Assembly (NCBI GenBank): GCA_001189165.1
Contig: LFCO01000003.1
Location: 126,984-190,983, forward strand
Reading direction: 5' to 3'
DNA length: 64,000 nt
From: Parcubacteria bacterium C7867-005
Lineage (GTDB): Bacteria; Patescibacteriota; Minisyncoccia; Phycocordibacterales; Zambryskibacteraceae
Part shown: one piece after another, positions 4,286 through 64,000 of the stretch
How positions within the stretch are numbered: the first letter of the stretch is position 1
Layout of the letters: every line of letters begins with the position of its first letter
Made by a program: the position numbers and the translations under genes
Notes under the pieces: model-generated
Told to the model about the DNA's origin: nothing
Seen by the model: only the letters and a program-made list of their open reading frames with translations
Databases searched by the model: none

Positions 4286-6145
4286 TTATATAGACAGGTC
4301 TATTTTATTGTTCCCAGTAGGAAGACTGATTTCCTTGTCTGCCTCCAATTCTTGTTTGGCTTTCTTTTGTGCCAAGACTTGAGATGGGTCAGAGGTGATG
4401 ATCTGATCTTCTGTATACGAAGCGATGTTCTTAATAGCCACGTGCTTGAGTCCGGCAAAAAAGATTCCTTCCCCAACCCCAGATTCGAGCAACAAGAATT
4501 TTTCTTCGTCAGTCAGGTTAAATATTTTTTGGAGATTGTCTACGGTGGTTGGAGATTGTTTGAGGAGTATTTGGATAGAAGAGTTGGTGATGATTGGTAG
4601 ACCATAAGGACTCTTCAAGAAGTCCCCTACGTCCTGGGTGACCGTCGCTACACCGAGATAATACTTGCGTCCCCTCTTCACTAGACCCATAAGGAACGAT
4701 GCGGTGTCATCCGACTTCATCATCCACCAAGCTTCATCTATGACGAGTAATCTTTTTTTGAGTTCTTTTCTGATGGCATTCCAAATATAGTGCGTGACTA
4801 TATACATGGCTATAGGTTTGAGCTCGTCTTCCATATCTCGGAGTGAGAAGACTACAAACTTTTTATTTATATCTACATTTGTCGGTTTATTGATAAAGCC
4901 TGCCCACGTACCCTTGGTGTATTTGGTGAGCCTTTGAGCTAGTGATTCACCTCCTTCGAGTCCAGAAAGAACGAGTTCAAAGTCACTCATAAGAGGCGGC
5001 TCGATAGACCTGAAATCAGAGTCAGCCGTGATGTCTTTCAAGGCATACGTTTCGGTGATCGCTCGGTCGATGATGGCATCTTCTTCTGCGGTTAAACCAC
5101 CCATCATGAGTCTGAACAAGCCTACAAGGTTGATGATGTTTGATCTAAGTACATTTGCTGCAGATTCATCAGGTCCAGGTATAGGTAAATCAAAAGGATT
5201 TATATGATGTTCAGAATTTAAGGAAATCTTGAAATACCTACCTCCTGTGACTTCTGCCATGTATTCGTACTCCCTCTCTGGGTCAATGACTATCACTTCT
5301 GTCTCAAACATGAGCGTTCGTAGAATTTCTAGTTTAGTGGCATATGATTTACCCGCACCAGATTTGGCAAACATGATGGAGTTGTAGTTTTCCAAAGAGA
5401 ATCTATCGAATAAAACCAAAGAAGAGTTGTGTCTGTTTATCCCATAAAGGATGCCTTTGTCCGAAGTGAGGTCAAAAGAAGTGAATGGAAAGAGGGACGA
5501 CAGCGGCGAAGAGTTCATCTTGGAGTGGACCATTAATAGATCGTCACCAAGCGGAAGGGTGCTTTTGTACCCTTGTTCTTGTTGGAAGAGAGCTGGTTTG
5601 GCATAGACTAGCTTGGCTTCGAGTATAGATTTGATTTCTGATTCGACCTTGTCGAGTTCTAGGTCACTTTCGGCATATATGGTGATGTAAAGACCAACAT
5701 CAAATAGCTTTTCTTGCGCTTGCTGTAGCTGGTCTCGTAGATTCTCTAGATCTTGGTAGGCAACGTCGAGCATCGGATCACGAACCAACCCCTTTTCTTC
5801 CCTGCTGTGGATTTGGCTTTGCACTTCTGCTACTTTCTTTTGGAATTGCCTTAGAACTTTAGAAGTTTCGATCGGATGGACAAAGATAGAGACGTCAAAA
5901 ACTTTATCCATATTGATGATCGGAGAGAACCAGCTTTCAGAGAGGAAACGAGGGTAAGAGATAACGAAGAAGCTCCTCACAATTTTTTCTCCCAAATTTA
6001 GTTCTTTCGGAGTAACCTTGAGTGCGGAAGGAGCGATGATGTCTTTGAGTTCGAGCACGCCCGCTTGAAATATCTCTTGAGGAAGAACAGAGCTAATGTC
6101 CTTCGATCTTTCTTTGCCACCAAATAATTTATTGAATATTCCCAT
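4286..6145 (-). CDS. VirB4/TrbE-family type IV secretion ATPase (central and C-terminal ATPase part)
   Basis: Walker A (FAKSGAGKSY) and Walker B (LLVIDEAWWM); 619 aa; CagE/TrbE/VirB4-like motifs. Confidence 0.85.
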   Translation of the reverse strand: MGIFNKLFGGKERSKDISSVLPQEIFQAGVLELKDIIAPSALKVTPKELNLGEKIVRSFFVISYPRFLSESWFSPIINMDKVFDVSIFVHPIETSKVLRQFQKKVAEVQSQIHSREEKGLVRDPMLDVAYQDLENLRDQLQQAQEKLFDVGLYITIYAESDLELDKVESEIKSILEAKLVYAKPALFQQEQGYKSTLPLGDDLLMVHSKMNSSPLSSLFPFTSFDLTSDKGILYGINRHNSSLVLFDRFSLENYNSIMFAKSGAGKSYATKLEILRTLMFETEVIVIDPEREYEYMAEVTGGRYFKISLNSEHHINPFDLPIPGPDESAANVLRSNIINLVGLFRLMMGGLTAEEDAIIDRAITETYALKDITADSDFRSIEPPLMSDFELVLSGLEGGESLAQRLTKYTKGTWAGFINKPTNVDINKKFVVFSLRDMEDELKPIAMYIVTHYIWNAIRKELKKRLLVIDEAWWMMKSDDTASFLMGLVKRGRKYYLGVATVTQDVGDFLKSPYGLPIITNSSIQILLKQSPTTVDNLQKIFNLTDEEKFLLLESGVGEGIFFAGLKHVAIKNIASYTEDQIITSDPSQVLAQKKAKQELEADKEISLPTGNNKIDLSI

Positions 6146-6146
6146 A

Positions 6147-6788
6147 TTAGTTAGATTTTATTGGTTTTTCTGTATCTCCTGGATTAAAAGCTTTGTAGAA
6201 AAGTTCAATCAATTCCTCTGTGCCCAACCGCGCCACTCTTATCCCTGTACGAACGAGGCCTTGTTCGACTACCGAGAGTCTTTGTTCGAGTTGTGTCAGA
6301 TTTTCTGCAAAACTGCTTTCTTTGTGCGCGGTCTTTTCCTCAGCCGTCTTTTTGTTAAAGAAAGAACCCAGTCCAGAAGATTTACCAGAAGAAATGGCAG
6401 AAGGAGTGTATGGCACTACGATAAAAAAGTTTTTGGTCATGATATTTGTGCTCTCGGTGAAGCTTTTGATGAACTGGATGTATTCTTGTGTTTGAATTTT
6501 CATCAGATCATTAGTTTGTTTCTTTTCCTGTTCTTCTAGGAGTGCTATATAGGGTCTGATGTCGAGCTTTCTTGATTGGATCACTATCTGGACAGAGAAA
6601 TCTAAAGAGTTTAGAAAGTCTTGGAATTGTAGAAGTATGGCTTGCTTCTCATCTTCAGACTTTAAAGAAAAGTTAACCGAGGAAGCCAGCACAACTGCTC
6701 TTAAACCACCGTCTTTGAGAACAAGGACGGAATCACGAACTTCTTGTATAGGAACGAAGGCCTGGGTCGAGGTTGTACTCGGTGACAT
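6147..6788 (-). CDS. VirB4 N-terminal domain encoded as a separate ORF (split VirB4)
   Basis: 213-aa product (IQEVRDSVLVLKDGGLRAVVLASSVNFSLKSEDEKQAI...) resembles the N-terminal domain of VirB4/TrbE; stop TAA, then 1 nt, then the ATG of the downstream ATPase ORF. Confidence 0.6.
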   Translation of the reverse strand: MSPSTTSTQAFVPIQEVRDSVLVLKDGGLRAVVLASSVNFSLKSEDEKQAILLQFQDFLNSLDFSVQIVIQSRKLDIRPYIALLEEQEKKQTNDLMKIQTQEYIQFIKSFTESTNIMTKNFFIVVPYTPSAISSGKSSGLGSFFNKKTAEEKTAHKESSFAENLTQLEQRLSVVEQGLVRTGIRVARLGTEELIELFYKAFNPGDTEKPIKSN

Positions 6789-6795
6789 GTTTATA

Positions 6796-7218
6796 TTATA
6801 GCGTATCTTCCCTGTTTTGATTGTTGTTCTGCTTCACATCTAGAGCAAAACTTAGTTCTTTTAGTTTTGATCCAGATAATTTAGGCACATAAACTTGAGT
6901 CTGAGTCTGTCCGGGAACCTCCTTTCTGATAATTTGTTTGTCTTCTTTTTTCCAAACATAGAGCTTGCTTCCTAAGGTGTATTGAAAGAATGCCTCTACG
7001 ACTTCTACAAACGGTTTCGAGTTCACTTTGTAGAAGGCAAGGGCTACAGCAAATACCACCACAGGGACGGATATGAGTATGGCTATAAATTTGGGCAAAA
7101 GGGTAAATAAAACAACGGACACGCCTACTCCGCCAGCCAGGTAGATGAACTGTTTGAAAGTTAGGGGGCCAAAGATCTTATCCTCGATTTCTATGAATTG
7201 GGGTACTTGGAATCTCAT
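6796..7218 (-). CDS. PrgI-family (VirB3-like) membrane protein
   Basis: MRFQVPQFIEIEDKIFGPLTFKQFIYLAGG followed by two TM helices is the hallmark N-terminus of PrgI/VirB3-like proteins of Gram-positive-type T4SS; directly upstream of VirB4. Confidence 0.6.
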   Translation of the reverse strand: MRFQVPQFIEIEDKIFGPLTFKQFIYLAGGVGVSVVLFTLLPKFIAILISVPVVVFAVALAFYKVNSKPFVEVVEAFFQYTLGSKLYVWKKEDKQIIRKEVPGQTQTQVYVPKLSGSKLKELSFALDVKQNNNQNREDTL

Positions 7219-7758: not shown

Positions 7759-9870
7759 TTATTCTGCGGAATATTTTTTTGGTCCAGGGTCCGTGGCTCC
7801 ACCAGTAGGTTCGTTGGTCTTTGGTTCCCCTGCTTTTGTTTCTGTTCCTGTATCATCTCCTGCTTCTTTTGCTTGTTTGGCGATTTCTTCCGCTATTTTC
7901 TCTGCAGGCTTTTTGTCTTTGATACTCTTTCGTATTGTCTCCGCAGCCAGTGTATATTCTTTCTTGGTTGGACCGAATAAGCCGATTCTCTTTATGTCTG
8001 GTATCAAATACCCCAATGGGCTGTCAGGGTCACCTATTCTGGTAGTGAGGAATTTTGCGTAAGCTTCTTTTCTAATTGCACCAACCCCCTTAATTTCCTT
8101 TGGCTTCCAGCCAAATGTCTCCTCTGCAATCTTTTCAGCCTCTTTCTGGCTTTTGCCAGCCCTGATCAAATCATCGATATTTGTCTTCCTTAGCTTTTCA
8201 AGTTCGGCCTCTGCTTCTTTCTGGTTCTTGCCTGAATCTTTTAGTTTCTTGATTTCTCTCAACTGAACTCCCTCTCTTCTAGAAATTTCTGCTTTCGCCT
8301 GTTTTTCAGTTAGTGTCCATCCAGATTCTTCTCTTATTTCACTAACCTTTCTTTTGCGTATCTCGTCTTCGTTTGCACCGCTTAGCTCATCTACCTTTCT
8401 TTGTGCGTCTGCGATTATCTCAGGATCATCAGTTTTCTTTGCCTCATCTAATTTTCTCTTGGCCTCAATAACTGAAAGCTCTGAAGGTTTGAGACTGTCG
8501 GCATATTTCTTTTCTGTCTCGATTCTATCCTTGAGATCTTTTGCATAACCACCACTTTGACCCTTTCCTGCCCCTAAGTCTTTCCCTATTCCTGTAGCTC
8601 TTATATCAAAGCTACTCTTAGATAGCTTGCTTGCGGCCGCAAGGTTGAGACGTGCCCTGATACTTCCTTCAGCCGCTCTATCTTGTAGCTCCTTGTTTCC
8701 TTCTAAGGAAGCACCGTATCTACCTATGATCCCCCGACCCGCTCTTCCTGCAAGGCCCACCGTCGCTCCGCCTGCAAGGCCCATGGCCCAACTGCCCATT
8801 TTACCAACTACACCACCTGCCTTAGATGAGATTGATTTGGCAGTAGTAAGGGCGGCAACGATGAGGGCGATGGCGATAAAGAAATTGATGATCAAACCCA
8901 TGCCGCCCGGGGAAGGCGCGCCGTTCACAGCTGCACTTTGAGTGAGTCCTTGCCTAAGAGTCTCTGATCCATTTACTCCGATGAAGCTCGGGTCATTGAT
9001 GATGACAATCACCACCCATGCGAGGAACATAAAAACTGGAGCGAAGGTTAACTGACTCATCAAAGCATCTTTCCATTGCTTCGCTTGGTCCTTTAATCCT
9101 GGTATCACTAGAGCGAGGAAAGCTATAGGTGAAAACGCCATCACCAAAATCAAAATGACGTATCGCATCAAAAAGAAGAAAGTAATAGCCAAGAACACCC
9201 AGGTGGTGATTAGTATGAATATAGAGCCCATTATTCCTACTAGAGTTATCTCTCCCGCGTTTATAGAATCAGTACCGTCTGTCTTGTATATAGTTTGTAT
9301 TTTAAGTGGAGCGACAAAGCTGTTGGAGAGCCCCATAGAAAAATTATCACCCTGTGCAGCATCCGGGGAGATGGCTCCGTAGAAAGTAAGGGTGACTATA
9401 TTCGAAGCATCTATCAGTACCTTTGTCCCAAACAAACTGAAATTGATAAACAAAGCGATGATGACCAAGTTTTTTATTGTTTCTTTGGCGAGTGACCTAT
9501 CTCCTAATATAAGTTTTATGGATGCATACAGGAGAATAAATATGAAAAACATATTGGCGATGTCCCTTACTGTCTCCCAGATCATCTTTATAGAAGTAAG
9601 ATCACCTATGTGTTGTTTCATGTCCACGACTGTATAGTCGATAACATAGTTCAGGAGAATACCTGCGAGCCCTAAGAGGAAAGACAATATCTTTAAAACA
9701 GCATTCGATGCATTTGCCATACAATCCTCGAGCTCAATACCTTCTGATATGGAAATGCACGCTGCATCTGTCGTGTTAGTGGGTACGAATAGTAGAATCA
9801 AAAACAAAGCGATTCCTAAAATAGCGAAAGTTTTTTTATCTATTTTCCTAAAGTGCTTAAGCCAAAGCAT
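7759..9870 (-). CDS. VirB6/TrbL-like polytopic membrane protein with long coiled-coil/charged C-terminal extension
   Basis: 703 aa, more than six TM helices in the N-terminal half, Gly/Ala-rich segment, then Lys/Glu-rich coiled coil; position and topology fit a T4SS VirB6-like channel component. Confidence 0.6.
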   Translation of the reverse strand: MLWLKHFRKIDKKTFAILGIALFLILLFVPTNTTDAACISISEGIELEDCMANASNAVLKILSFLLGLAGILLNYVIDYTVVDMKQHIGDLTSIKMIWETVRDIANMFFIFILLYASIKLILGDRSLAKETIKNLVIIALFINFSLFGTKVLIDASNIVTLTFYGAISPDAAQGDNFSMGLSNSFVAPLKIQTIYKTDGTDSINAGEITLVGIMGSIFILITTWVFLAITFFFLMRYVILILVMAFSPIAFLALVIPGLKDQAKQWKDALMSQLTFAPVFMFLAWVVIVIINDPSFIGVNGSETLRQGLTQSAAVNGAPSPGGMGLIINFFIAIALIVAALTTAKSISSKAGGVVGKMGSWAMGLAGGATVGLAGRAGRGIIGRYGASLEGNKELQDRAAEGSIRARLNLAAASKLSKSSFDIRATGIGKDLGAGKGQSGGYAKDLKDRIETEKKYADSLKPSELSVIEAKRKLDEAKKTDDPEIIADAQRKVDELSGANEDEIRKRKVSEIREESGWTLTEKQAKAEISRREGVQLREIKKLKDSGKNQKEAEAELEKLRKTNIDDLIRAGKSQKEAEKIAEETFGWKPKEIKGVGAIRKEAYAKFLTTRIGDPDSPLGYLIPDIKRIGLFGPTKKEYTLAAETIRKSIKDKKPAEKIAEEIAKQAKEAGDDTGTETKAGEPKTNEPTGGATDPGPKKYSAE

Positions 9871-22522: not shown

Positions 22523-22599
22523 CCTTGTATAATAGCATATAACGCTCTTTTAAGCAAGCTCCCTCTCTAACACTCCCCGCCTCATGAAATGGTACAATA

Positions 22600-52664: not shown

Positions 52665-54830
52665 ATGGAACGAGATTATCCCCTAGAACGAGTTAGAAAC
52701 TTCGGTATTATCGCCCACATCGACGCGGGCAAGACCACAACCTCAGAGCGCGTGCTTTTTTATACTGGTGCTCAACACAGCATTGGTGAGGTGCACGAAG
52801 GGGAGACAACTACAGACTGGATGGAACAAGAAAGAGAGAGAGGTATCACCATCACCGCAGCAGCGATCACTTGTTTCTGGGCGCCTACGTATCTTTCAGC
52901 AACAGAGAGGTCCGATGCCAAAAAGAAATTCCGTTTTAACGTGATCGACACCCCAGGACACATCGACTTTACTGTAGAAGTGAAGAGATCCTTGCGCGTA
53001 CTCGACGGTGCAGTGGTGGTATTCGACGGCGTGGCCGGTGTTGAACCACAATCTGAAACTAACTGGCGTTATGCAGAGGACGCGAACGTTCCTCGTGTTT
53101 GTTTTATCAACAAGCTTGATCGAACTGGTGCATCGTTTGAACGTTCATACAAATCAATCCTCGACAGGCTTTCCAAGAAAGCAGTCCGTATGCAGATCCC
53201 TATTGGTGAAGAGGATAAGCACGAAGGTGTAGTGGATCTATTGAAAATGAAAGCGTACTACTTCGAGGGCAATATGGGTAATCAAGTTCTTGAGAAAGAC
53301 ATACCCGCAGACCTCCTTGAACAAGCAACTAAATACAGAGCAGAACTCGTAGAGAGAATAGTAGAGAATGACGAGGGACTCATGAATGCATACCTTGAGG
53401 GCAAGGAAATCTCTCTTGAAGCACTCAAAGAAACTCTCCGCAAAGCAGTGATAGGGAATAAAATTTTCCCTGTGTTCACTGGCTCTGCTTTGAAAAACAA
53501 AGGTGTACAGCTCGTACTCGATGCGGTTGTAGACTTCCTCCCATCTCCACTCGATATTCCTCCTGTAAAAGGTATCAATCCTGAAAATGGTGAAGAGGTC
53601 ATGAGGCATGCGAGTGATGCAGAACCTTTTGCTGCTCTCGCCTTCAAACTCCAAGCAGATCCATTCGTCGGACAACTTACTTTCTTCCGCGTGTATTCAG
53701 GAACAATAGAATCAGGAAGCTATATCTATAACTCCACCACTGGAGAGAAGGAGAGATTGGGTAGAATCGTGCGCCTCCAGGCGAATCAGCGCGAAGAAGT
53801 GAAAAAAGTTTTTGCCGGAGAGATCGCCGCAGCGGTGGGTCTAAAGAATGCTAAAACATCTCACACATTCTCTGATGAGACGAACGCAATCATCCTCGAC
53901 CAGATCACATTCCCTGAACCAGTTATCTCTTTGCGTATCGAACCAAAAACAAAAGCAGACCAAGAGAAAATGGGCTTTGCACTCAAGAGACTTTCGGACG
54001 AAGATCCAACTTTCAAAATCAAATCTGATTCAGAGACAGGAGAAACAGTGATCATGGGTATGGGTGAACTCCACCTTGAGATTATTGTTGATCGTATGAA
54101 GAGAGAGTTCAGCGTCGAAGCAAATGTCGGTAAACCACAAGTAGCTTATAAAGAAACGATCACCGGCGAAGCAGAAGTCGACAACAAATACGTCAAGCAA
54201 ACTGGAGGAAAGGGTCAGTACGGACACGTCAGGATCAAGATCAAACCACTTCCAAAATATGATCCAGAAGAAAAGGTTCCTAAAAATGCTCACCGAGAGG
54301 AAGGATTCGAGTTCATCGATTCTATCAAAGGAGGTGTTATTCCTCAAGAATTTATCCCTGCAGTAGAGAAGGGAGTGAAGGAAGCCATGGAACGCGGAAT
54401 ACTCGCAGGATACAAGATGGTGGACATATCTTGTGAATTGAATTTTGGATCGTACCATGATGTGGACTCTTCTGAAATCGCTTACAAGATCGCAGCTTCC
54501 CAGGCCTTTCAAGAGGCGGCCAAGAAGTCTAAACCAGTTATCCTCGAGCCAATTATGAGAGTCGAAGTAGTGGTCCCAGAAAAGTTCATGGGTGACATCA
54601 CTGGTAACCTTTCTGGTAAGCGTGGACAGATCGAAGCGATGGAAGATAGGGGAGACCTCAAGGTTATCCGTGCACAAGTGCCTCTATCAGAAATGTTCGG
54701 TTATGTGACAAACCTCCGTTCTATGACCGAAGGCCGTGGCTCTTCTACTATGGAATTCGATCACTATGCGATCGTGCCTCCAAACGTGGCTACAACTATC
54801 ATCGAACAGAGAACGGGAGGGAAGGCATAA
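52665..54830 (+). CDS. fusA: Elongation factor G
   Basis: G-domain motifs ([21 protein letters not shown]) and full EF-G length. Confidence 0.97.
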
Positions 54831-54900
54831 TTGATAAACTCAGGTAATTCTAGTAAACGGCCCAGCAGGGCTGTTTTTGCGATATTTAAGCTGAATATCC

Positions 54901-54929
54901 TTGACTTTGGGTATTTAGTATGCTATGAT
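54901..54929 (+). promoter_or_regulatory. Sigma70-like promoter P1 (TTGACT-17-TATGAT) driving the foreign GC-rich ORF
   Basis: ttgact 54901-54906, 17-nt spacer, tatgat 54924-54929; shares tccttgac and agtatgcta-Y-gat with the promoter at 63310. Confidence 0.5.
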
Positions 54930-54986
54930 TAGTGAGGATAGAGAAGTTCCGTTACATACCCCTTCCGGCCTAGAGCCAGAGAGCCC

Positions 54987-55634
54987 ATGAACCCGTTCCA
55001 GGCACTCCTCGAGAAGATCGACAGCAAGGTCGCCGAGGTCAAGCAGCTCTTCGCTGCGATCCTCCTGAACGCCGACATCGTCGTGGCCCGAGCCGAACTC
55101 GGGCGTGTCATCGAAGCCCTCAAGGGCTCGAACACGGCCGCAGACGAACGCAACGCGCGTTTCGTGGCTGCGGAAGCCGAGTGCGCGCTCGAGGAGCTCA
55201 ACCAGATGGAGCAGAAGTTCCTCATCTCCGCCTTCGCCGTCGACATGATGCGCAAGCGGATGGGCGGGCTCGATCCGGTCACTCTCGAACGCTACAAGAC
55301 GTCTCTGAGTGACCGGATCACCCGGTACGATGCCACCCGTTCGGGCAGGATGCCCGACACGTCCGAGCTCCGTCGCCAATTTCGTGCCTTCAAGGCAGAC
55401 ATGCGTCGGGCCGAGGCTGCGTCCATCCACTCGGTCGGGAAGAGAGCCCACAAGGCTCTTCTGACTCCCGAGATCGTGGGTGGTTCGACCGGCTCGAAGC
55501 CGGCCTCGCGCGAGAACAAGCAGCGGGCTCGAGACAAGAGCATCGCCCATCGCGCGATGATGGTCCGGACGAATCGCATCCGCTCCGGTGAGCAGGGCAA
55601 CAAGAAGGGAGTGAAGCAGAAGGCTTCGCGCTAG
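54987..55634 (+). CDS. Compositionally foreign (very high GC3) hypothetical protein, 215 aa, predicted helical with basic C-terminus
   Basis: ATG after a weak agagag SD; nearly every codon ends in G/C, unlike neighbouring host genes; own promoter and own strong terminator. The long antisense ORFs are the usual high-GC artefact. Confidence 0.6.
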   Translation: MNPFQALLEKIDSKVAEVKQLFAAILLNADIVVARAELGRVIEALKGSNTAADERNARFVAAEAECALEELNQMEQKFLISAFAVDMMRKRMGGLDPVTLERYKTSLSDRITRYDATRSGRMPDTSELRRQFRAFKADMRRAEAASIHSVGKRAHKALLTPEIVGGSTGSKPASRENKQRARDKSIAHRAMMVRTNRIRSGEQGNKKGVKQKASR

Positions 55635-55647
55635 ATTGGGGTAACAA

Positions 55648-55688
55648 GCCCCGCGGACGGTCCCACGGACCATTCGTGGGGCTTTTCG
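55648..55688 (+). terminator. Strong Rho-independent terminator ending the GC-rich cassette
   Basis: gccccgcg-gac-ggtcc-cac-ggacc-att-cgtggggc compound hairpin followed by ttttcg. Confidence 0.6.
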
Positions 55689-55710
55689 TATATAAAAGCC
55701 TTAAAAATCC

Positions 55711-55738
55711 TTGACTATTGCTCGCCCTTTGCTAAGAT
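55711..55738 (+). promoter_or_regulatory. tuf promoter (TTGACT-16-TAAGAT) with about 180-nt leader
   Basis: atccttgact...taagat; the same tccttgac -35 context as the two cassette promoters. Confidence 0.5.
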
Positions 55739-55920
55739 AGCCCTTACGCGTTATGTGCTGTTTTTCTTTGGCTCTTTGAGACTCAATCTTAATAGACCGA
55801 ATGAAATATGGCTTTATTGCGTACTTATCCGTTTGTTGATCAGAGAGAGCAAATGTTCTCGCGCGCTCTCTCGGTTCAAAAAACAATTTACTTAAATTAC
55901 TAATAAATCTTACTAATTTT

Positions 55921-59213: not shown

Positions 59214-60053
59214 ATGAAACGATACAGACCAACATCTCCATCCAAAAGACAGGAATCAAAAGTTGAATTCAAAAAATTCATCACTAAATCCGAACCTTTA
59301 AAATCCTTGACCAAAGGTTTTCGTCGAGCGAACGGACGCAACAACACTGGGCGTATTACCACTCGCCACAAAGGAGGCGGACACAAGAGACTCTTTAGAG
59401 ATATAGATTTTACATACAACAAGATAGACGTGCCTTTCACTGTTAAGACAGTCGAATATGATCCAAACAGATCTGGATTCATCGGTCTCGTCGCTTATAA
59501 AGACGGAGAGAGACGATATGCACTTCTACACAAGAGTGCTCGAGTAGGAGATGTATACATCGCCTCAGAAACTGCACCGATCACTCCGGGGAACAGACTC
59601 CCATTGTCCAAGATCACTGTCGGTACTTTTGTTTACAACGTAGAGCTCAAGCCAAGAGGTGGAGCCAAGATCGCTCGTTCGGGTGGTAACTATGTAGAAG
59701 TTGTTGCCAAGGATGGTGGCTATGTAGACCTGAAGATGCCTTCAAGCGAAGTTCGCAAAGTTCTAGAGACTGCTTGGGCCACTGTCGGTGAAGTATCAAA
59801 TGATGAGAACAGACTGACTAACCTCGGCAAGGCGGGGAGGTCTCGTTGGCTCGGTATCCGTCCAACGGTCCGTGGTACAGCGATGAACCCAGTAGACCAC
59901 CCACACGGCGGAGGAGAGGGCAGACAGGGTCGAGGACGCAGAAGGGCTATCTCTATCTACGGCAAGCCAACAGGCAAAGGACAGAAGTCTCGCCGTTCAA
60001 AGAAATATTCAAACAAACATATTGTCCGCAGACGAAAAGTCGGCAAGAAATAA
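59214..60053 (+). CDS. rplB: 50S ribosomal protein L2
   Basis: GRNNTGRITTRHKGGGHKR and PHGGGEGR motifs. Confidence 0.95.
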   Translation: MKRYRPTSPSKRQESKVEFKKFITKSEPLKSLTKGFRRANGRNNTGRITTRHKGGGHKRLFRDIDFTYNKIDVPFTVKTVEYDPNRSGFIGLVAYKDGERRYALLHKSARVGDVYIASETAPITPGNRLPLSKITVGTFVYNVELKPRGGAKIARSGGNYVEVVAKDGGYVDLKMPSSEVRKVLETAWATVGEVSNDENRLTNLGKAGRSRWLGIRPTVRGTAMNPVDHPHGGGEGRQGRGRRRAISIYGKPTGKGQKSRRSKKYSNKHIVRRRKVGKK

Positions 60054-60059
60054 AAAACA

Positions 60060-60085
60060 AAACTCGCCCTCAGGCGGGTTTTTTG
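60060..60085 (+). terminator. Rho-independent terminator immediately after rplB
   Basis: ctcgcc-ctca-ggcggg hairpin followed by tttttt. Confidence 0.55.
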
Positions 60086-60098
60086 GTATATTCAAGGC

Positions 60099-60620
60099 AT
60101 GCAACAACTTGATAAAAAAGCAGTCTGGTTATTTTTTATAGGCTCTATGTTTGGATGGGTCTTCTTTGGAGTTTTTCTCTCTATCTGGGGGGCCAGTATC
60201 TCTGGTGAGATGTTTAGCGGTTCGATGACTTTTAACGGACAGCCAGTGAACCCGTTAGCGTTTATGTGGTTTGCAGTAAAAACTGTTGTCGCTCTGCTCT
60301 TAATCCTCTCTTATATTTGGGCACGTCTCTCGTATCGTTTTTATAGATACGAACTCAGAGATAATGGATTCAGGAAGGAGTCAGGCGTGATCTATAAAAG
60401 TTATGTCACCATACCTTATGACCGTATCCAGAATGTAGATGTGTATCGAGGAATCCTCGCACGCATGCTTGGGCTTTCTGATTTACATATCCAAACAGCG
60501 GGAGCAGGTACAATGCTCGGCGAAGGTAGACTACCAGGCCTTTCACATGAGGTCGCAGAACAACTCCGAGATGAACTCATCAACCGTTCACGTGCCTCTA
60601 GAACGGGCCAGGGTTTATAG
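60099..60620 (+). CDS. Bacterial PH-domain (bPH_2 / YdbS-like) membrane protein
   Basis: Two N-terminal TM helices then PH-like region (YRYELRDNGFRKESGVIYKSYVTIPYDRIQNVDVYRGILARMLGLSDLHIQTAG). Confidence 0.75.
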   Translation: MQQLDKKAVWLFFIGSMFGWVFFGVFLSIWGASISGEMFSGSMTFNGQPVNPLAFMWFAVKTVVALLLILSYIWARLSYRFYRYELRDNGFRKESGVIYKSYVTIPYDRIQNVDVYRGILARMLGLSDLHIQTAGAGTMLGEGRLPGLSHEVAEQLRDELINRSRASRTGQGL

Positions 60621-60624
60621 TTGA

Positions 60625-60778
60625 CTTTCCTCAAATTTGGTATAAAGTAGGGCACGTAAGGTCAAAGACAGAAGGTGGCGCAAGCCTTAATCATGCCTTC
60701 CGAGATCACTCTCAAACGCACTTCGGTGTAGTCGAGACCTTATAGAGGTCGTTTTTTTTGTTCGTTAATTTATAAATT
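60625..60778 (+). promoter_or_regulatory. Ribosomal protein L10 leader region with promoter-like TTGACT...TATAAA and an attenuator hairpin
   Basis: Structured 150-nt leader before rplJ ending in gacct-tatag-aggtc followed by eight T, consistent with the L10(L12)4 autoregulatory leader of Gram-positive-type genomes. Confidence 0.5.
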
Positions 60779-61267
60779 ATGGCAATATCAAGAGCCAAAA
60801 AAGGAGAGATAGTAGACAAGCTTCAAGGAGCCCTCAAGGGTGCCAAGTCGCTCGTCTTCGTCAACTTTCATGGCCTCAAGGTTTCTGATGCCACAGCCAT
60901 GCGCCGTTCCCTCAAAGCAGAGGGCGTCTCATACGCAGTGACAAAGAAATCTTTGACCAAACGAGTATTAGCTGATGAGAAATTCGAAGGCACTTTGCCT
61001 GAACTCACCGGCGAACTCGCGATGGCTTGGTCAGACGACCTGATCGCACCAGCGAGAGGCGTCTATGGTTACCAAAAGAAATTCCCAGAGGGCCTCAAGA
61101 TCCTCGGCGGAGTTTTCGAAGGCCGCTACATGACTAAGGCAGAGATGGAAGGAATCGCCACGATCCCTACCACCAATGTTCTACGAGGAATGTTTGTTAA
61201 CATCATAAATTCTCCAATACAGCGTTTCGCGATCGCGCTCGGTCAGATTGCAGAGAAGAAAGCTTAG
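60779..61267 (+). CDS. rplJ: 50S ribosomal protein L10
   Basis: Canonical L10 N-terminus (KKGEIVDKLQGALKGAKSLVFVNFHGLKV). Confidence 0.95.
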   Translation: MAISRAKKGEIVDKLQGALKGAKSLVFVNFHGLKVSDATAMRRSLKAEGVSYAVTKKSLTKRVLADEKFEGTLPELTGELAMAWSDDLIAPARGVYGYQKKFPEGLKILGGVFEGRYMTKAEMEGIATIPTTNVLRGMFVNIINSPIQRFAIALGQIAEKKA

Positions 61268-61293
61268 TCAGTTATCAGTAACAAATTAATACA

Positions 61294-61698
61294 ATGGATG
61301 AAACAAAAGTTGCTACAGAAGAAGTAGCAGTCCCTGCCAAGTTCGCGAAGATCGTGAAGGAGATCGAAGAGATGTCCGTCCTCGATTTGAACGAATTGGT
61401 CAAAATATTCGAAGCTAAGTTCGGAGTTTCTGCAGCCGCAGTCGCAGCAGGCCCTGCTGCAGGTGCCGCTCCAGCCGAAGAGGCCAAGAGCACAGTAGGC
61501 GTAGAGCTCACTGATGGTGGTGCGAATAAAATCGCGATCATCAAGATAGTCAAAGAAGTCCTCGCCCTTGGATTGAAAGAGGCCAAGGACCTCGTAGATG
61601 CAGCCCCTTCTATGCTCAAAGCAGATATGAAGATGGAAGAAGCTACAGAGCTTAAGAAGAAAATCGAAGAAGCCGGAGGCAAGGTTACTTTCAAGTAA
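61294..61698 (+). CDS. rplL: 50S ribosomal protein L7/L12
   Basis: Ala-rich hinge and C-terminal domain ([27 protein letters not shown]...[13 protein letters not shown]). Confidence 0.95.
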
Positions 61699-61720
61699 TA
61701 AACCCCCTAATTCTAGAATC

Positions 61721-61747
61721 AAAAACCCTGCTATTGCGGGGTTTTTG
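61721..61747 (+). terminator. Rho-independent terminator after rplL
   Basis: ccctgc-tatt-gcgggg hairpin followed by ttttt. Confidence 0.55.
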
Positions 61748-61809
61748 ATTGGACTACGCACCTTTTGGGCGAGGTAGTCAATTAGTGCAGGAGGGGCTTT
61801 CTATGTAGA

Positions 61810-62379
61810 ATGGGCAAAAAGATGAAATCGGTATCCCACATATTTGGAGGAGAGGCCAAGGTCAAGATAATGCGTCTTTTCATATTTAACCCAGAGACTA
61901 TTTATGACACGAATACTGTCTCTGAACGCTCCCAAGAAAATCGAACATTGGTTGCGCGCGAACTCCGCAAACTCGGACAGTCTGGACTCATTAGAAAAAA
62001 GAGTAAAGGTTGGGCTCTAAACCCTTCGTATCCGTACATCAAAGCACTAGAACATTTCTTTATTGATGCTAGTCCGATAACTGAAAAAGAAATCGTAAAG
62101 AAATTATCCAGAGCGGGGACAATCAAACTGGTTTTAATTTCTGGAGTTTTCCTACACGACACCGAGGCGAGGGTAGATTTATTGGTAGTAGGGGATCATC
62201 TAAAGAGGGGTTTGCTCGTCCATGCCATAGGCAGCATAGAGGCAGTTTTAGGAAGGGAGATACGCTACGCTTCCTTTGAGACAGCAGATTTTCAATACAG
62301 ATTAGGGCTATACGACAAGCTAGTTAGGGATATCCTCGACTTTAACCACAAAAAGATCGTCAACAAGCTCGCAGTGTAG
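61810..62379 (+). CDS. Hypothetical protein with possible N-terminal winged-helix region
   Basis: 189 aa; RLFIFNPETIYDTNTVSERSQENRTLVARELRKLGQSGLIRKK looks like a wHTH; no catalytic motif recognised. Confidence 0.45.
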   Translation: MGKKMKSVSHIFGGEAKVKIMRLFIFNPETIYDTNTVSERSQENRTLVARELRKLGQSGLIRKKSKGWALNPSYPYIKALEHFFIDASPITEKEIVKKLSRAGTIKLVLISGVFLHDTEARVDLLVVGDHLKRGLLVHAIGSIEAVLGREIRYASFETADFQYRLGLYDKLVRDILDFNHKKIVNKLAV

Positions 62380-62509
62380 CTTTCCTATCCACAGGCCATC
62401 TCAAAAAACCTTTAAATACTAGTGCGAGGTGTATAATAAGTTATACCCCTATTTGAGTGGTAACAATTATAAGTAAAGTGCATTTGCACGAGCTTTCAGT
62501 CAAGAATAT

Positions 62510-63205
62510 ATGATTATGAATACTTGGGGACAGATTTTGACAGCTTCGTTCCAAGATCTTTGGTACGGAGTTATTAACTTTGTTCCAAACTTGGTAGTCG
62601 CTATTATCATCGTTGTTTTAGGATGGCTCATCGGCGCACTCTTTGGTCGAGCTATCTGGCAGGTGTTCCGTTCACTTCGCGTGGACGAAGCTCTTCGCCG
62701 AGCAGGATTTGAGACATTCCTCCGCAGAGGAGGCTTGAACCTCGATTCTGGTGCTTTCATCGGTGGTTTGGTCAAGTGGTTTGTGATCTTGGTTTTCCTC
62801 ATGGCTTCATTCGAAGTTTTGGGTCTAGATCAAGTTAACCTCTTCCTCAAAGATGTGGTTATCGCTTACCTTCCTCGTGTGATCGTAGCTGCCCTCATAC
62901 TCCTAGTTGGAGGTGTGATCGGTGACATAACAGATCGTGTTGTTGTCACTGCAGCTAAGACAGCCGAAGTTAGATCAGCTCATTTCTCTGGCACAGTAGC
63001 CAAGTGGGCAATCTGGATTGTCGCTCTCCTCGCCGCTCTTTCACAGCTCGGCATTGCAGCAGCATTCAGCCAGACACTCTTTACTGGAGTAGTTATCGCC
63101 ATCTCTCTTGCCCTCGGCCTTTCATTCGGCCTCGGTGGTCAAGAAGCAGCAGGAAAGTTCCTAGAACGTCTTCGTGGAGACATGAGTGACAAGAACCACG
63201 GCTAA
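62510..63205 (+). CDS. Conserved TM-helix-repeat membrane protein (two internal repeats)
   Basis: Two similar TM pairs each followed by an amphipathic basic segment (GALFGRAIWQVFRSLRVDEALRRAG... and GDITDRVVVTAAKTAEVRSAHF...); host-like composition. Confidence 0.55.
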   Translation: MIMNTWGQILTASFQDLWYGVINFVPNLVVAIIIVVLGWLIGALFGRAIWQVFRSLRVDEALRRAGFETFLRRGGLNLDSGAFIGGLVKWFVILVFLMASFEVLGLDQVNLFLKDVVIAYLPRVIVAALILLVGGVIGDITDRVVVTAAKTAEVRSAHFSGTVAKWAIWIVALLAALSQLGIAAAFSQTLFTGVVIAISLALGLSFGLGGQEAAGKFLERLRGDMSDKNHG

Positions 63206-63240
63206 CCAGAGGTATCAGCTAGATAATACCGAGGATAGCT

Positions 63241-63270
63241 CAAAACCCCCGCTCTGGCGGGGGTTTTGTT
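63241..63270 (+). terminator. Rho-independent terminator
   Basis: cccccgc-tctg-gcggggg hairpin followed by tttt. Confidence 0.6.
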
Positions 63271-63309
63271 ATATGGCTCTATGTATGGATATTTGGTTCA
63301 TAAATCTCC

Positions 63310-63338
63310 TTGACAAAGGGGTTAGAGTATGCTACGAT
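63310..63338 (+). promoter_or_regulatory. Sigma70-like promoter P3 (TTGACA-17-TACGAT) driving the second foreign GC-rich ORF
   Basis: ttgaca 63310-63315, 17-nt spacer, tacgat 63333-63338; spacer/-10 nearly identical to P1 at 54901 (gg.t..ag-agtatgcta-Y-gat). Confidence 0.5.
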
Positions 63339-63402
63339 CAATACAGATAGGCGAATGCCTACTGCAGTACCTCTCATCTCTACTCCTTCAAGGAGCTCTT
63401 AC

Positions 63403-63982
63403 CGTGACGAGCATCGCACCGCAGGTTCGCATCGGCATCAATCTCGCCGATGAGGAGCACATCCTGTTCAAGATCACCCTCTCCAACAAGAGCCTGGTTC
63501 CCGCGGGCATCCGCGAGATCGAGCGCGAGTCGGACAAGGTCATCGACCGGCGTAACGCCGACAAGGCGATCGCCGCAGGCAACGCTCGTGTGGCGACGGT
63601 CGGACGAGTTCGTCCGGGACGTGTCGATACCGGCAAGCCGATCTTCCAGAACGTGGAGCGCGTGCGCGTTTCGCTCGTCCGGGGAATCCTGGCTCGCAAG
63701 GGCTTCCGCCTCGCCGACGCGCACTTCTTCGTTCGGAACGACGGCAAGGCCGTGCTCGTCCTCTCCCTCATGAAGGGACGGGACACGCTGGAGCTCCCGC
63801 GTGCGACGGTCGAGGCGATCCGGGCCATGGCCCGTGACAACGTCTGGACCGCGGACATGTGGGAGAACGTCGACAACGCGACCCTGAACTTCCGTGCGCG
63901 TCAGCAGGGTTCGGCGAAACAGTCGATCACGGTCGACGATGACATGCTCATGATGGTCGACGGCGACCTCGCGGTCGAGTAG
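63403..63982 (+). CDS. Compositionally foreign (very high GC3) hypothetical protein, about 193 aa, GTG start
   Basis: aaggag SD 8 nt upstream of GTG at 63403; codons almost uniformly G/C-ending; stop TAG at 63980-63982. Sequence after the stop continues to the window end, so a downstream partner gene cannot be excluded. Confidence 0.55.
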
Positions 63983-64000
63983 AGGAAGACGCCCGTACAT

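Follow-up and report, generated by a model that had tools for sequence, protein, structure and literature searches.

Two consensus-like promoters before a probably linked pair of GC-rich genes in the ribosomal gene region of Parcubacteria bacterium C7867-005

A stretch of 64,000 nucleotides (nt) from Parcubacteria bacterium C7867-005 (contig LFCO01000003.1, positions 126,984 to 190,983; hereafter the window) contains exactly two GC-rich islands, 54901-55775 (GC 0.65) and 63301-63975 (GC 0.67), in a window of GC 0.43. Both GC-rich units are placed within the str/S10 ribosomal gene region, and each carries one GC-rich open reading frame (ORF), ORF-A and ORF-B, preceded by the promoters P1 and P3, respectively. 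An initial annotation took the resemblance of P1 and P3 to imply a common origin by duplication, by a mobile promoter-bearing unit or by deliberate construction, and regarded both as mimics of the native tuf promoter. The question raised by this locus is why two unrelated ORFs, 8 kb apart, carry promoters so alike. On balance, we lean to reading P1 and P3 as strong housekeeping promoters native to this genome, each heading an insulated monocistronic unit for one of two linked, lineage-specific genes, and their likeness as a reflection of the promoter consensus together with a probable common descent or homogenisation.

Anatomy and likeness of promoters P1 and P3

The sequences quoted for P1 and P3 in the initial annotation were found at the positions listed in Table 1 and share the motif that it had described, but the spacing of 17 nt that it gave was a miscount with zero matches, the correct gap being 13 nt. 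Compared with TTGACA, the -35 hexamer agrees at 5/6 positions in P1 and 6/6 in P3, and compared with TATAAT, the -10 hexamer agrees at 5/6 and 4/6 positions, respectively. The pentamer TATGc directly precedes the -10 hexamer in both (54919-54923 in P1 and 63328-63332 in P3). P1 and P3 thus show all the sequence features of sigma-70/sigma-A extended -10 (TRTGn) promoters, namely the -35 hexamer, a spacer of 16-18 base pairs (bp; optimum 17), TRTG and the -10 hexamer. TRTG is the documented -16 consensus (PMC6570832), and the work of Voskuil & Chambliss, as cited there, describes the -16 TRTG extended -10 in Bacillus subtilis as well as in further Gram-positive bacteria. Like these promoters, P1 and P3 combine TTGACW, a 17-bp spacer, TATG at -17 to -14, one further base and a TATAAT-like hexamer; they differ in having G at position 4 of the -10 and in sharing non-core bases. 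Transcription is predicted to start at about 54936-54937 from P1 and at about 63345 from P3. A start some 6-8 nt past the -10 gains indirect support from the upstream terminators, the leaders of 50-59 nt, the Shine-Dalgarno sequence of ORF-B and the same layout at 19/21 homologues of ORF-B.

P1 and P3 were the two best sigma-70-like matches between 50 and 64 kb, and they took second and third place when the best intergenic sites in all 64 kb were ranked. The motif TCCTTGAC-N13-TATGCTAYGAT gave 2 matches in 64 kb, even with 3 mismatches allowed, against 0.03 expected, and these two sites precede the sole two GC-rich islands of the window. Similarly, AGTATGCTAYGAT was found at the P1 and P3 sites only (0.09 expected in the window), but TCCTTGAC by itself was not over-represented (4 found, 2.7 expected). 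No third copy of the motif was detected in the window and 10 kb on each side of it.

The ungapped identity between P1 and P3 was 39/64 (61%) from -45 to about +25, and a MAFFT alignment of the two regions gave 61 identical columns of 113. On the upstream side the likeness stops near -45, and on the downstream side it has faded by +25; it is marginal in the leaders (z-score 1.8) and absent upstream of -45 (z-score -0.7). At the core positions (-35, TGn and -10), 13/15 agree, both promoters being near consensus. Outside the core, 26/49 positions match, compared with a shuffle mean of 12.8 (standard deviation 3.0, p about 5e-5), and no other pair among the 210 formed by 21 promoters scored as high (mean 14.8, standard deviation 3.6). 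A true orthologue promoter pair (L013/L010) scored 25/49, on par with P1 and P3. By these figures, the description of the two promoters as near-identical was overstated. The additional matches comprise tcc in front of the -35, a GGG within the spacer and GATAG at about +8.

Part of this likeness is readily explained. The shared run agtatgctaYgat consists mostly of the -16 TRTG and the -10 hexamer, so that the likeness becomes weaker proof of a common origin. When metagenomes were scanned for TTGAC-N12-GTATGCTAYGAT, at least 98 distinct sites were obtained from gut, marine, soil and other samples, and the unconstrained sixth base of the -35 was A in 60 of the 98 listed sites, indicating genuine TTGACA promoters in unrelated organisms. 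TATGCTA also occurs at two other predicted native promoters of the window, at 22533 (-) and 50997 (+). Much of the resemblance between P1 and P3 is therefore the general bacterial consensus (-35 TTGACA, 17-bp spacer, -16 TRTG and -10 TATAAT). A search for further copies had been proposed with the initial annotation; the full motif proved unique to P1 and P3 within 84 kb, and its -16/-10 string proved generic.

Pure convergence, in which P1 and P3 would be unrelated and each would have evolved to a strong consensus, the other matches being chance or general preference with no bearing on co-regulation, is possible but doubtful. The agreement of the core through closeness to consensus, the commonness of the -16/-10 string at promoters of unrelated organisms, the unremarkable frequency of TCCTTGAC alone, the marginal likeness of the leaders and the absence of likeness upstream all fit it, as does the near-consensus promoter before 19/21 ORF-B homologues, whose spacers otherwise differ widely. 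The non-core score, with its low p value and its first place among the 210 pairs, speaks against it. So does the ORF-B promoter of the relative L005, which matches P1 at 12/14 spacer positions. The tcc context also recurs, at P3 and at the related promoter of L170 (ctccTTGACT...gtatgcTATGAT). The claim that similarity implies a common origin accordingly stood in part: the shared run is mostly generic, but the non-core likeness is real. This residual likeness suggests shared ancestry or shared constraint of P1 and P3, and on sequence grounds a common ancestry of the two promoters is plausible.

Another reading is a shared operator, with GGG in the spacer and GATAG at about +8 binding one regulator of a small regulon, irrespective of how the promoters arose. 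Such an operator would be compatible with the preferred reading of native promoters before linked genes, and it is considered unlikely. The non-core matches are indeed concentrated in the spacer and over the 12 bases transcribed first, GA(T/A)(A/G)GG stands at a similar position in the ORF-B promoters of L170 and L004, and a gene for a helix-turn-helix-like protein (61810-62379) lies nearby and is kept in L005 and L007. Against these points, no dyad symmetry or repeated half-site was evident, the spacer matches are lost in L004, L007 and more distant relatives, and the 84 kb searched hold no third copy.

The native tuf promoter (55711-55738) shares with P1 and P3 only the -35 context AAWATCCTTGACT (12/13), its -16/-10 string being TTTGc-TAAGAT, so that the initial annotation was correct in noting a common -35 context with a different spacer and -10. 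The further idea of mimicry was not borne out, because L007 has kept the tuf promoter together with the leader of about 180 nt, yet with CCA instead of TCC as the -35 context and with no ORF-A upstream. The arrangement recalls the secondary tuf promoter of the str operon, since a promoter dedicated to tuf lies between that gene and fusA and shares its -35 context with P1; given the conservation of this tuf promoter in L007, P1 is not a demonstrable copy of it. The 13-nt direct repeat (12/13) that brackets unit A is simply these two -35 regions. An insertion scar was considered for this repeat and rejected, as it is the copy nearer to tuf that carries the conserved upstream context of that gene, which does not suit a simple integration event at its -35. 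In that 1.2-kb stretch, repeats of about 13 nt are frequent, with 7 families.

The probably linked genes and the age of their GC excess

The two units have a common layout, each consisting of an upstream terminator, a promoter, a leader of 50-60 nt, one GC-rich ORF and a strong terminator. BLASTP of ORF-A against ORF-B returned E = 34 and thus no similarity, in keeping with the initial description of the two ORFs as unrelated, and the idea that they are paralogues was rejected. Both are encoded on the + strand, as indicated by the GC3 > GC1 > GC2 pattern (GC at the third, first and second codon positions), the homologues and the structure model of ORF-B. In the assembly GCA_002396705.1, antisense ORFs are annotated instead (54915-55673 (-), 252 amino acids (aa), and 63380-64000 (-), 206 aa); long ORFs opposite ORF-A and ORF-B are a usual by-product of high GC3, and that assembly calls both genes on the wrong strand. 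An interpretation of the islands as RNA genes was rejected, as no Rfam hits lie inside them and the codon-position GC and protein-level conservation point to coding. The start of ORF-B in the Joint Genome Institute (JGI) annotation, ATG 63329, overlaps the -10 and is unsupported by the family alignment; GTG 63404 is favoured.

ORF-B belongs to an uncharacterised family of about 200 aa in Parcubacteria, for which an exhaustive profile search gave at least 177 clusters at E <=1e-3 and 126 at E <=1e-10. No Pfam, NCBIfam, PHROG, PADLOC or PDB sequence match was found for this family. The AlphaFold2 model of ORF-B, built from a 79-sequence alignment, reached pLDDT 95.2 and pTM 0.88, and the predicted fold had no match in PDB or among viral folds. 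The homologues in the two closest sequenced relatives, L005:11463-12029 (-) and L007:1521-2090 (-), are circular permutants of ORF-B in which its N-terminal segment of about 55 aa (LVKFxFxN..IPxGI..R..D) stands at the C-terminus. ORF-A is basic (pI 10.4) with a Lys/Arg-rich C-terminal tail, and could be assigned to no family in Pfam, NCBIfam, PHROGs, PADLOC or PDB. A profile search of 5.8 billion proteins matched only ORF-A itself and P0004 (L007:2248-2844, 198 aa), which is 24% identical to ORF-A (pairwise E 5e-9). A defence system was rejected, PADLOC being without a hit for either ORF.

Among 24 Parcubacteria-type loci from GTDB genomes, found with TruD as the anchor, a member of the ORF-B family adjoins TruD in 21, and the two genes are convergent in all but one. 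The two proteins also diverge together: identity to L004 is 47% for ORF-B and 50% for TruD, and the nearest neighbour by ORF-B is the nearest by TruD in 14/18 loci. P0003, a homologue from a word-based search with 46% BLASTP identity (GC 0.59 vs 0.39), is likewise convergent with TruD and lies behind a terminator and a TTGACT-17-TGcTATTAT promoter. In L170, the order is the mechanosensitive-channel (MS-channel) gene, a terminator, the promoter quoted above, the GC-rich ORF-B homologue, a terminator and S19. The ORF-B promoters of L170, L004 and L005 resemble P3.

The two ORFs also appear to belong together, as had been supposed from their promoters. In L007, where TruD is 61% identical, the MS-channel gene is followed by the ORF-A homologue, the ORF-B homologue and TruD on the other strand, and each of the two homologues stands behind a TTGAC promoter of its own, is closed by a separate terminator and is GC-enriched. 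In the window, by comparison, the ORF-A unit lies 8 kb from ORF-B, between fusA and tuf. The side-by-side position in L007 supports a functional link between ORF-A and ORF-B, and the same rare GC3 excess marks both genes in both genomes. In L005 and L170, the ORF-B unit directly follows the MS-channel gene, and no ORF-A homologue was found in the locus. Other GC-rich ORFs beside ORF-B homologues (in L012, L022 and others) were considered as relatives of ORF-A and proved unrelated.

ORF-A and ORF-B have a GC of 0.63-0.65 and a GC3 of 0.82-0.86, compared with a genome GC of 0.43 and GC3 of about 0.45. In 20/21 loci, the ORF-B homologue has a higher GC3 than the TruD gene beside it, by 0.10-0.48 (mean 0.65 vs 0.43). 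The homologue is the most GC-rich ORF in 13/20 loci and first or second in 17/20, with lower ranks in the higher-GC genomes L009 (7th of 20), L011 (11th of 16) and L026 (10th of 11); in the window and L007, the other top-GC ORF is the ORF-A homologue. The excess is smaller at higher genome GC and absent in the one high-GC locus. Conserved protein blocks vary at their third positions yet stay G/C, which indicates that the composition is held by something. Judged from these comparisons, the GC excess of ORF-B is old and family-wide, not imported.

The same evidence bears on a recent horizontal import, in which a mobile cassette from a high-GC donor would have brought its own promoter and terminator. 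The composition of the two ORFs in a genome of GC 0.43, their codon usage like that of high-GC bacteria, the insulation of both units by terminators, the 13-nt repeat around unit A and the near-orphan status of ORF-A would all suit such an event, and a sharp GC and codon contrast to the host without functional annotation is what recently transferred islets display. Nevertheless, ORF-B keeps its place beside TruD and diverges in step with it across 21 loci, and the GC excess of ORF-B is kept at local GC of 0.36-0.53, the opposite of the amelioration expected for a recent import. No homologue from a high-GC organism or phage was identified, the promoters are AT-rich and of native type, and no bracketing repeats were found around the units beyond the -35 regions. 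Neither an integrase nor a transposase was found among the genes called in two stretches, one beginning 10 kb before the window and reaching window position 11.8 kb, the other beginning at window position 45 kb and reaching 10 kb beyond the window. Putative mobile promoters are likewise similar promoters before non-homologous genes in one genome, but they are defined by at least 50 nt at no less than 80% identity (PMC3488235); P1 and P3 are identical at 61% of 64 positions, their likeness stops at about -45 and +25, and no insertion sequence or repeat is attached. Import is thus largely refuted for ORF-B, the mobile promoter-bearing unit of the initial annotation is contradicted by the synteny and co-divergence, and we regard import as very improbable overall. 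A phage origin of the ORFs was also rejected, with no viral contig and no viral fold match.

A chimeric assembly or an engineered construct, which the tidy layout and sharp GC jumps might suggest, has a negligible probability, since the source is a natural, published metagenome-assembled genome (C7867-005, Hanford groundwater; 563,550 bp, 42% GC, 3 scaffolds), the copies of the window in JGI 3300001199, GCA_002396705.1 and the Logan assembly are 100% identical over the overlap (L001-L003 being the same genome and not counted as independent evidence), and diverged relatives in independent metagenomes (L004, L007, L170 and others) share the layout and the GC jump.

Codon use, messenger folding and the proposed explanation

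In the ribosomal and elongation-factor genes, NNC is preferred in two-fold codon families, together with CTC, CAG, AAG and CGT, and both ORFs exaggerate these preferences. At the same time, ORF-A and ORF-B use CCG, TCG, ACG, GCG, GAG and GGC, which those genes avoid; in the four-fold families, CCG, TCG, ACG and GCG take the place of CCA, TCT, ACT and GCA. The codon usage of the two ORFs correlates with that of the ribosomal and elongation-factor genes at r = 0.50, and their codon adaptation index ranks 51-52 of 70. The idea that the high GC3 stems from extreme codon optimisation was therefore half right, the two-fold codons fitting the ribosomal bias and the four-fold families running opposite to it. 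The amino acids are also GC-shifted, with a GARP/FYMINK ratio of 1.36 compared with a median of 0.79.

The predicted minimum free energy of the ORF-A and ORF-B coding regions was -0.46 kcal/mol per nt, compared with -0.20 to -0.33 in 25 native genes. Relative to synonymous-codon shuffles, the folding z-score was -4.2 for ORF-A and -3.2 for ORF-B; a control of 22 genes had a mean of -0.24, a standard deviation of 1.44 and a minimum of -3.5. These predictions are suggestive of selection for mRNA structure in the two genes, but not decisive.

From what is shown above, namely the layout of the sequence, its conservation, the synteny and co-divergence of the genes, their GC and codon statistics and their predicted folding, the following explanation is proposed. 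ORF-A and ORF-B would be a lineage-specific, vertically inherited linked pair, not imported cassettes, and P1 and P3 would be near-consensus sigma-70/sigma-A promoters with TTGACW, a 17-bp spacer, the -16 TRTG extended -10 and TAYGAT. Closeness to consensus would account for the -35 and most of the shared run. The tcc, GGG and GATAG matches would remain from a probable descent of P1 and P3 from neighbouring promoters of the once-adjacent pair, or from homogenisation between them, with ORF-A presumably the gene that was relocated. Initiation that is strong and constitutive, a hairpin at the 5' end (evident for ORF-B), a GC-rich coding region with unusually strong folding and a strong terminator may together yield abundant, long-lived monocistronic mRNAs, the products of which would be two basic proteins.

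Several points weigh against this explanation. The non-core likeness was examined post hoc and rests on one pair, with other pairs reaching 23-25/49. P3 is closer to P1 (8/14 spacer positions) than to the promoter of L004, its closest ORF-B relative (2/14), which fits homogenisation within the genome and also fits chance. The search for further copies covered 84 kb of a genome of about 564 kb. ORF-A has one homologue, at 24% identity, so that the adjacency of the two genes comes from a single relative. The codon choice of the two ORFs does not simply follow highly expressed genes, given the rank of the adaptation index and the use of NCG and GAG codons. Finally, the idea of stable mRNA is weak, as 1/22 controls and the MS-channel gene reach z-scores of about -3.1 to -3.5.

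As a separate and tentative suggestion, ORF-A and ORF-B may form a Parcubacteria-specific module whose composition is under long-term gene-specific selection, an abundant basic protein pair being made from stabilised (or RNase- or toxin-resistant) messages. This suggestion is prompted by the GC3 kept amid synonymous turnover, the non-ribosomal codon choice, the strong folding, the consensus promoters and the unmatched predicted fold.

Genomic setting and meaning of the locus

The features of the two units are collected in Table 1. Unit A follows fusA (52665-54830). The S10 ribosomal operon is split between the L2 and S19 genes by an inserted block (window 60053-64000; L206:10715-12559), which contains genes for a bPH_2 protein, L10, L7/L12 and a 189-aa protein, the MS-channel-like gene, ORF-B and, on the opposite strand, TruD. 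The block has the same order in L005 and L007, the bPH_2 gene excepted, for which no tblastn hit was found in either locus. An Rfam match to the L10 leader (60644-60767) was sub-threshold, at 34.6 bits vs 44.

Table 1. Coordinates of the features of unit A, unit B and the tuf promoter
Feature	Position	Strand	Description
Terminator-like hairpin and T-run after fusA	54858..54882	+	cggcccagcagggctgttttt; insulates unit A from the str operon
Promoter P1	54898..54929	+	-35 TTGACT 54901-54906; 17-bp spacer; -16 TATG 54919-54922; -10 TATGAT 54924-54929
5' leader of ORF-A	54937..54986	+	About 50 nt; marginal likeness to ORF-B leader
ORF-A	54987..55634	+	215 aa; GC1/2/3 = 0.63/0.45/0.82
Strong intrinsic terminator of unit A	55645..55690	+	Long GC-rich hairpin and T-run
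Native tuf promoter	55704..55738	+	AAAATCCTTGACT; 16-bp spacer; TGc-TAAGAT
Terminator after MS-channel-like gene	63244..63270	+	aaaacccccgctctggcgggggttttgtt; Rfam sub-threshold terminator-like hits; insulates unit B
Promoter P3	63307..63338	+	-35 TTGACA 63310-63315; 17-bp spacer; -16 TATG 63328-63331; -10 TACGAT 63333-63338
5' leader of ORF-B	63345..63403	+	About 59 nt; 5'-terminal hairpin 63345-63363; Shine-Dalgarno AAGGAG 63390-63395
ORF-B	63404..63982	+	192 aa from GTG; GC1/2/3 = 0.67/0.41/0.86
ORF-B terminator	63990 to about 64046 on L001	+	Just past window end

Several further observations were made around these features. The 189-aa protein (61810-62379), whose gene is flanked by L7/L12 and the MS-channel-like gene, has a match to PDC-M05A, a candidate defence family of PADLOC (E 6.8e-15), and a weak one to an Lrs14-type helix-turn-helix regulator; both L005 and L007 retain this protein. 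The sequence GCTAGATAATACC (63218-63230) is exactly kept 13-15 nt past the stop of the MS-channel-like gene in 4 genomes (the window, L005, L007 and L170), the intergenic DNA around it having diverged and the next strong promoter lying 50-80 nt downstream. In a small hairpin it provides the 3' arm, and the 5' arm shows matching changes (GGTAT/ATACC; GGTATT/AATACC). In the tuf leader (55739-55920, about 180 nt), for which no Rfam match was found, a hairpin at 55831-55884 has a loop, UGUUCUCGCGCG, conserved in L007 and L005, and a stem with compensatory changes. A perfect 12-nt complement of this loop lies inside ORF-A at 55507-55518, with a chance probability roughly estimated at 0.05-0.1.

Between the L5 and S8 genes, some 5-7 kb beyond the end of the window (L206:15780-17470), there is a third unit of the same layout. 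It comprises a terminator, TTGACA with a TATG -16, a leader and two overlapping ORFs (183 and 330 aa) of GC 0.53-0.56 and GC3 0.65 and 0.56, compared with 0.40-0.52 in the flanking genes, and no homologues of these ORFs were found in related loci. At the other end of the window, a set resembling type IV secretion or conjugation genes (TraG/VirB4-like P-loop, TraC-like, PrgI) was noted at 4286-7218 (-) and upstream of the window start (L207), a few kb from the rnpA-yidC and dnaA-dnaN region, which places the window start near the replication origin. A mild GC rise (0.56 over 300 nt, 8626-8925) lies within a 703-aa ORF at 7759-9870 (-).

In summary, the promoter pair alone represents ordinary strong consensus promoters of a well-known kind, and it serves as a caution that consensus elements are no proof of copying or engineering. 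Almost nothing is known of the promoters, expression signals and abundant proteins of Parcubacteria, which are uncultured. For this group, the locus provides a clean, conserved promoter model, TTGACA-17-TRTGn-TATAAT, and a widespread family of about 200 aa with a confident, unmatched predicted fold within the ribosomal gene region. The lasting GC-richness of ORF-A and ORF-B, more than the likeness of their promoters, is the real puzzle, as a long-lasting GC-rich gene in AT-richer genomes is not predicted by standard amelioration and translational-selection models. If the tentative suggestion of gene-specific selection on composition is true, the two genes would represent a new abundant basic protein pair in ultra-small symbiotic bacteria.

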